A stretch of 64,000 nt of DNA, taken from the NCBI RefSeq assembly GCF_013315695.1, contig NZ_CP054353.1. One strand, 5' to 3'. The notes beneath the pieces are model-generated. The model was not told the origin of the DNA and did not search any database. It saw only the letters and a program-made list of their open reading frames with translations. Shown here piece by piece: positions 52,288 to 52,310 of the stretch. The position numbers and the translations under genes are program-made. The number at the start of each line of letters is the position of its first letter. Within the stretch, counting starts at the first letter, position 1. Origin of the DNA: Escherichia coli. Its GTDB lineage: Bacteria > Pseudomonadota > Gammaproteobacteria > Enterobacterales > Enterobacteriaceae.

Positions 52288-52310
52288 AAGATGTATTTTA
52301 AATGCATCTT
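52288..52310. promoter_or_regulatory. NsrR operator in the ytfE promoter
   Basis: Near-perfect palindrome AAGATGTATTTTAAATGCATCTT, 27 bp upstream of the ytfE start; matches the NsrR consensus AAGATGCATTTnAAATGCATCTT as recalled. Confidence 0.8.

Follow-up and report, generated by a model that had tools for sequence, protein, structure and literature searches.

Repression by NsrR in its [4Fe-4S] form, which is abolished upon nitrosylation of the cluster, is the established model for this regulator (PMC9052748 and references therein). For ytfE (dnrN), Rodionov et al. (2005) give in their Table S2 the 19-mer GATGCATTTAAAATaCATC, which is their top-scoring NsrR site of Escherichia coli (PMC1274295). 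In strain CFT073, an NsrR peak in ChIP-seq has its summit at a listed position of −50, which is 50 bp before the start codon of ytfE. The ytfE site ranks first of the 11-1-11 NsrR sites in the genome, its ln P being −25.13 while the hcp site has −23.87 and the hmp site −18.22; ytfE is upregulated 69.6-fold with nitrate in this strain, and the same paper states that ChIP-chip in K-12 had earlier recovered the ytfE promoter (PMC5320621). In a Salmonella nsrR mutant the expression of ytfE rises 544-fold (PMC2884951), while in EHEC the ytfE promoter has served as a reporter for NO (PMC7336997). Occupancy by NsrR in vivo, as well as the relief of repression when NO is present or nsrR is lost, is documented in the literature for the K-12 sequence, which is identical to the operator described here, and for the CFT073 sequence, which differs from it by one base. 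The primary mutational study is said to be that published by Bodenmiller and Spiro in 2006, and the ChIP-chip experiment for NsrR in K-12 is reportedly that of Partridge and coworkers from 2009.

The operators of hmp, hcp, ygbA, yeaR and other NsrR targets in E. coli share with the ytfE site an 11-1-11 dyad and a half-site consensus of the AAGATGCATTT type. They are nevertheless more degenerate, and the ytfE site is the one that lies closest to the consensus and obtains the top score. The holo NsrR dimer of Streptomyces coelicolor, as reported by Volbeda and coworkers in 2017 and by Rohac and coworkers in 2022, is said to bind to a palindrome and to be released by NO. Asp8 and the three cysteine positions of this protein (PDB entries 5n07 and 5n08; the chain sequence in PDB entry 7b0c equals that of 5n07) are conserved in the NsrR encoded by the DNA analysed here, whereas its operator sequence differs and its regulon is very small. 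With about 39% identity between the S. coelicolor and E. coli proteins, this is a distant relative (PMC9052748). No structure of E. coli NsrR was found in a structure search with our NsrR sequence as the query.

The stretch that we analysed, referred to below as the window, consists of 64,000 nucleotides of E. coli DNA. Positions 52288–52310 of the window read AAGATGTATTTTAAATGCATCTT, which corresponds to AAGATGCATTTAAAATACATCTT on the minus strand, the strand that encodes ytfE. This 23-mer has an 11-1-11 architecture of inverted arms, which can be written as AAGATGCATTT-A-AAATACATCTT for the ytfE strand, and its one-nucleotide centre lies at position 52299. The arms are complementary at ten of their 11 positions, and the 23-mer differs from its own reverse complement at three positions, namely the centre and the two bases of the one arm pair that does not match. 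A match with three or fewer mismatches occurs in none of 100 dinucleotide-preserving shuffles of the window. The end of the operator and the ATG of ytfE are separated by 26 bp. An earlier note on this DNA, which described a 23 bp near-perfect palindrome just upstream of ytfE, is thus borne out both in the exact 23-mer and in its placement.

The match to NsrR sites was evaluated using a palindromic weight matrix constructed from 25 distinct published 11-1-11 NsrR sites (PMC5320621, Table 4), from which all ytfE sites were left out in order to avoid circularity. The operator obtains 30.0 bits with this matrix, while the runner-up in the 64 kb window obtains 13.5 bits. The maxima over 200 shuffles have a mean of 13.1 bits and a highest value of 20.9 bits. 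The same matrix scan of the window revealed no second full NsrR site above chance, including at nsrR itself. With the corresponding half-site matrix, the ytfE-distal half-site AAGATGCATTT (52300–52310, minus strand) is the top 11-mer of the window at 15.3 bits, and the ytfE-proximal half-site AAGATGTATTT (52288–52298, plus strand) is the second-ranked at 14.4 bits. The distal 11-mer is also the one given for ytfE of CFT073 in Table 2 of PMC5320621. The central 19-mer of the operator is exactly the GATGCATTTAAAATaCATC of Rodionov et al. (2005). The comparison with published NsrR sites that the earlier note had proposed as a check comes out in favour of its reading, both through the score obtained with 25 other sites and through the identity to the K-12 operator.

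The operator is the same as that of K-12 in all 23 bp on the ytfE strand and in the 26 bp distance to the ATG, and the gene order also agrees, with ytfF upstream and cycA beyond the 3′ end of ytfE. The flanks are less alike: K-12 differs by three substitutions immediately before the operator, and directly downstream it has TATCTT where the window has TATATT. The latter is an A/C polymorphism within E. coli, TATCTT being found in K-12 and many other E. coli. The operator is likewise identical in the K-12 derivative J53, in BL21, in an O157-type strain and in others, while the immediate flanks vary (alignment A1); one E. coli strain lacks a 5 bp CTTAT repeat unit beside the operator. The CFT073 site has the locus, the architecture and the distal half-site AAGATGCATTT in common with the window, but carries a G at position 17 of the ytfE strand in place of the A of the window, which turns it into a perfect palindrome.

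The frequencies of these two alleles were determined by exact 30-mer searches in 5426 complete E. coli genomes. The A allele (T at 52294 on the plus strand), which gives the imperfect palindrome of the window, is found in 4167 genomes (about 77%), while the G allele (C on the plus strand), which gives the perfect palindrome of CFT073, is found in 959 (about 18%). Together they account for 5126 of the 5426 genomes; about 300 contain neither exact 30-mer, and ten of these lack the locus. Other genera, too, show both alleles in the 80 loci described below. The term 'near-perfect' in the earlier note hence fits the allele in the window but does not hold in general, given the perfect palindrome in about 18% of the complete E. 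coli genomes.

The regulated gene, ytfE, occupies positions 51599–52261 of the minus strand and encodes a di-iron RIC/YtfE protein of 220 amino acids, with 417 bits for the NCBIfam model NF008221 (YtfE) against a cut-off of 254. Its Shine–Dalgarno sequence GAGGT (52269–52273, minus strand) is invariant in 81 of 81 aligned sequences and places 8 nt between GAGG and the ATG. The next gene upstream, ytfF (52369–53343), lies on the same strand, and the 107 bp intergenic region between ytfF and ytfE contains the operator. A handful of E. coli genomes share 99.9% identity with the window over 1.9 kb around the operator, and most of the 5416 genomes with this locus share 95–99%. The gene is annotated as ytfE in the former, and the annotation cycA, ytfE, ytfF is common to all 5416. 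The earlier note called ytfE an iron–sulfur repair gene and a classic NsrR target. Its status as a target stands, while the repair label is contested, a 2022 study reading YtfE as an NO-forming nitrite reductase that feeds NsrR and that, jointly with it, monitors cytoplasmic nitrite (PMC9052748).

A scan of a species-representative genome collection with YtfE provided 80 ytfE loci, which belong to at least 18 named Enterobacteriaceae genera. The operator is present in all 80, in each case with at least 24.4 bits within the 300 bp before ytfE, and it is positioned 24–27 bp before the start codon in every locus and exactly 26 bp before it in 66 of them. Within 1.5 kb on either side, none of the 80 loci contains a further NsrR-like site above 10.6 bits. 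When 81 upstream regions are aligned, the columns of the operator have a mean conservation of 0.945. The corresponding means are 0.66 for the other intergenic DNA upstream, 0.60 for the 3′ end of ytfF and 0.87 for the first 30 bases of ytfE. The outer arms, AAGATG and CATCTT, both show almost no variation, and changes are confined to positions 4, 7, 14, 17, 20 and 21, which are loose in the published consensus too.

Conservation does not stop at the edge of the 23-mer. The ATATT directly beyond it (52287–52283) is conserved as strongly as the operator in the 81 sequences. Either a functional footprint of more than 23 bp or an overlapping second element would account for this. The conservation of the operator is in addition confounded with that of a possible −10 hexamer.

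A consensus scan of positions 52150–52480 identified neither a canonical σ70 promoter nor a −35 partner, and the literature searched contains no mapped transcription start for ytfE. The geometry of the operator relative to RNA polymerase is for this reason one that we infer. Two −10-like hexamers were read by hand, both on the minus strand. TAAAAT (52295–52300) is located inside the operator and is kept as T-A-A-[A/T]-A-T in 81 of 81 sequences, while TATATT (52283–52288) abuts the operator and its six positions are retained in 81, 81, 81, 79, 71 and 75 of the 81 sequences, respectively. A good −35 partner is lacking for both. If TAAAAT is the −10 element, transcription would start near 52288 and the operator would extend from about −22 to +1; with TATATT it would extend from about −34 to −12. 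With either choice, a bound NsrR dimer would exclude the polymerase. We favour TAAAAT because a conserved block further upstream, described below, is then centred at −44.5.

In the likely mechanism, NsrR acts as a homodimeric winged-helix repressor of the Rrf2 family with one [4Fe-4S] cluster per subunit, and one subunit docks onto each 11 bp arm of the operator. In this position the protein would cover the promoter core including the −10-like TAAAAT, such that RNA polymerase is kept off and ytfE remains silent. NO, derived from the host or from the nitrite metabolism of the bacterium itself, nitrosylates the cluster, upon which NsrR loses its affinity for DNA and ytfE is strongly induced. Occlusion of the −10 region as the means of repression is what the location of the hexamers suggests.

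The only other strongly conserved element of the ytfE upstream region is a 7-2-7 block resembling a NarL/NarP site at positions 52325–52340 of the minus strand, TGCTACG-TA-AGGGTTA (TGCTACGTAAGGGTTA), which is a candidate activator site. The window sequence agrees with TACYYMT-NN-AKRRGTA at 10 of 14 positions, a weak match when taken alone, and many genera reach 12–13 of 14. In 78 of 81 sequences the block keeps the same distance to the operator, and over all 81 it has a mean of 11.35 matches out of 14 compared with 5.2 ± 1.7 at other positions. Its right heptamer is the better preserved (a mean of 6.5 of seven matches, against 4.85 of seven for the left heptamer). The block is not new, because candidate NarP sites are already marked in the ytfE alignment of Rodionov et al. 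(2005) according to the legend of their Fig. S2 (PMC1274295). Our search of the literature for NarL or NarP at ytfE returned nothing beyond this legend.

A transcription start near 52288 would put the centre of the block at −44.5 in Escherichia and at −43.5 in most other genera, where the base corresponding to 52320 is absent. This extra base is present in the four Escherichia sequences of the alignment, the window included, and is lacking from the other 77 of the 81. NarL sites at −44.5 and −43.5 reportedly activate the yeaR and ogt promoters, which are said to function without a −35 element (a finding attributed to Squire and coworkers, 2009). The analogy with yeaR and ogt may serve as a lead for the role of the block. 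As an alternative assignment for the same block we considered a terminator hairpin of ytfF. A CCCC-GAAA-GGGG stem-loop can be drawn in some genera, but the window and many other sequences lack the stem and no T-run follows, and the assignment was rejected as one that could hold in general.

We consider it possible, although rather doubtful, that these features carry regulatory differences of their own. The A/G allele at position 17 might set a lineage-specific affinity for NsrR, and with it the NO threshold and the basal level of ytfE. Together with this or in its place, the NarL/NarP-like block might provide activation by nitrate or nitrite that is gated by NsrR, its phasing being shifted by the extra base specific to Escherichia. 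The conserved block could in any case guide a dissection of the nitrate and nitrite control of ytfE.

Taken as a whole, the evidence makes it almost certain that the 23 bp palindrome serves NsrR as its operator at the ytfE promoter, as the earlier note had read it, and no result speaks against this: it contains the 19-mer of Rodionov et al. (2005), published ChIP places NsrR at ytfE and the site is kept in 80 of 80 orthologous loci. All hallmarks that a sequence can reveal for NsrR operators of the E. coli type are present, namely the architecture and consensus, the location in a promoter, the cognate regulator and the conservation at orthologous loci. The explanation that comes closest to competing is that the palindrome is conserved merely on account of core promoter elements, or that it is bound by another regulator such as the Rrf2 protein IscR. 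The TAAAAT hexamer inside the operator and the adjoining TATATT agree with the former, and for the latter it can be noted that proteins related to NsrR exist, the window NsrR itself showing weak matches to the IscR and RirA family models, and that reviews describe indirect effects of FNR and Fur on ytfE without recognised sites (PMC9268430). A −10 hexamer, however, accounts for six conserved positions and not for 23 with dyad symmetry, and the near-invariance of AAGATG and CATCTT concerns the outer arms. The type 1 and type 2 consensus sequences of IscR are, to our knowledge, unlike the ytfE operator. The 30 bits were obtained with a matrix trained on other sites bound by NsrR, ChIP shows NsrR itself at the ytfE promoter (PMC5320621) and an nsrR mutant is derepressed several-hundred-fold (PMC2884951), which together leave this explanation very improbable.

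Even less can be said for the two remaining explanations. That the palindrome is a chance product of AT-rich sequence without any function would fit the base composition of E. coli intergenic DNA, and NsrR-like 11-mers at chance level do occur elsewhere in the window (19045–19055 and 57889–57899). The shuffles nevertheless yielded neither a match with up to three mismatches (0 of 100) nor a score that approaches 30.0 bits (at most 20.9), and amid diverging intergenic DNA a fixed distance to the ATG is maintained in 80 of 80 loci, which represent at least 18 genera, so that we attach a negligible probability to chance. That the inverted repeat lies between ytfF and ytfE, which share a strand, could also point to an RNA hairpin, either a terminator of ytfF or a structure in the 5′ leader of ytfE. 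Against this, a full hairpin is impossible for A/T-rich arms around a 1 nt centre, a terminator scan of 52150–52480 gave no match, and the minimum-free-energy fold of the 84 nt region leaves the arms unpaired and is no more stable than those of shuffled sequences (z = −0.65). An Rfam scan of 51000–53500 gave no match at E ≤ 1. The variation between species also lacks base-pair compensation, as the A/G polymorphism makes or breaks a pair while the partner stays unchanged, and an RNA structure is hardly credible.

The NsrR operator of ytfE was already known, so the analysis confirms its identity and the discovery value is small. Its value is that of a positive control, in which an operator and its regulator were recovered from sequence alone and then confirmed by analysis. 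The allele frequencies of the operator in 5426 E. coli genomes and the footprint of the ytfE promoter in 81 sequences are by-products.

The trans-acting repressor is encoded in the same window. A full-length nsrR (19082–19507, plus strand), with a GTG start and a product of 141 amino acids, matches the NCBIfam model NF008240 (NsrR) over residues 1–141 of 141 with 292.8 bits against a cut-off of 182. It is located 32.8–33.2 kb from the operator, in agreement with the distance of about 33 kb given in the earlier note. Residues 1–129 of the protein align with S. coelicolor NsrR (PDB entry 5n07) with 73.6 bits, such that Asp8, Cys91, Cys96 and Cys102 stand opposite Asp8 and the three cysteines of the latter. 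The aligned aspartate and cysteines are reported, in the 2017 work of Volbeda and coworkers, to be the ligands of the [4Fe-4S] cluster. That nsrR and its target share one window reflects where the two happen to lie on the map and has no mechanistic meaning, because NsrR acts in trans on sites across the chromosome.

Two further 11-mers resembling half-sites were considered and rejected. One, AAAATACATTT, is found at 19045–19055, 27 bp before the GTG of nsrR, and scores 13.3 bits; it sits inside a small palindrome (region 19044–19055) beside a TATAAA motif. The other is found at 57889–57899, before the ORF that starts at 57986, and scores 14.0 bits. Both fall within the range of the half-site matrix maxima in shuffled sequence (mean 13.4, highest 15.3 bits). 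The first is at chance level for a 64 kb window and gives no support for autoregulation of nsrR. Near the second, positions 57853–57875 resemble a full site, with 11.9 bits, a score within the chance range. These motifs (57853–57899) belong to an AT-rich region between an ORF at 57034–57774, which we take to be cysQ, and an ORF of 303 amino acids at 57986–58897.

The spacing between nsrR and the operator is 25.4 kb in K-12 compared with 32.8 kb in the window, because the window carries two insertions. The larger one (22900–28036, 5.1 kb) lies between rlmB and yjfI and encodes a regulator of the IclR family, an enzyme of the DapA/aldolase family, a D-galactonate-type MFS transporter and a galactarate/altronate-family dehydratase, and it has the appearance of an island for the utilisation of sugar acids. 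The smaller one (46518–48269, 1.75 kb) includes an ORF at 47014–48222 for a TnpB-family RNA-guided endonuclease of the IS200/IS605 type (402 amino acids; NF040570, 392 bits), while the K-12 counterpart of this spot holds just a truncated pseudogene of the TetR family. Identity to K-12 is 99.98% over 7695–22900, which contains nsrR and rnr, compared with 97.6–98.2% over 28036–54081, which contains ytfE. This mosaic pattern of identity suggests a recombination boundary near the insertion at 22.9–28.0 kb.
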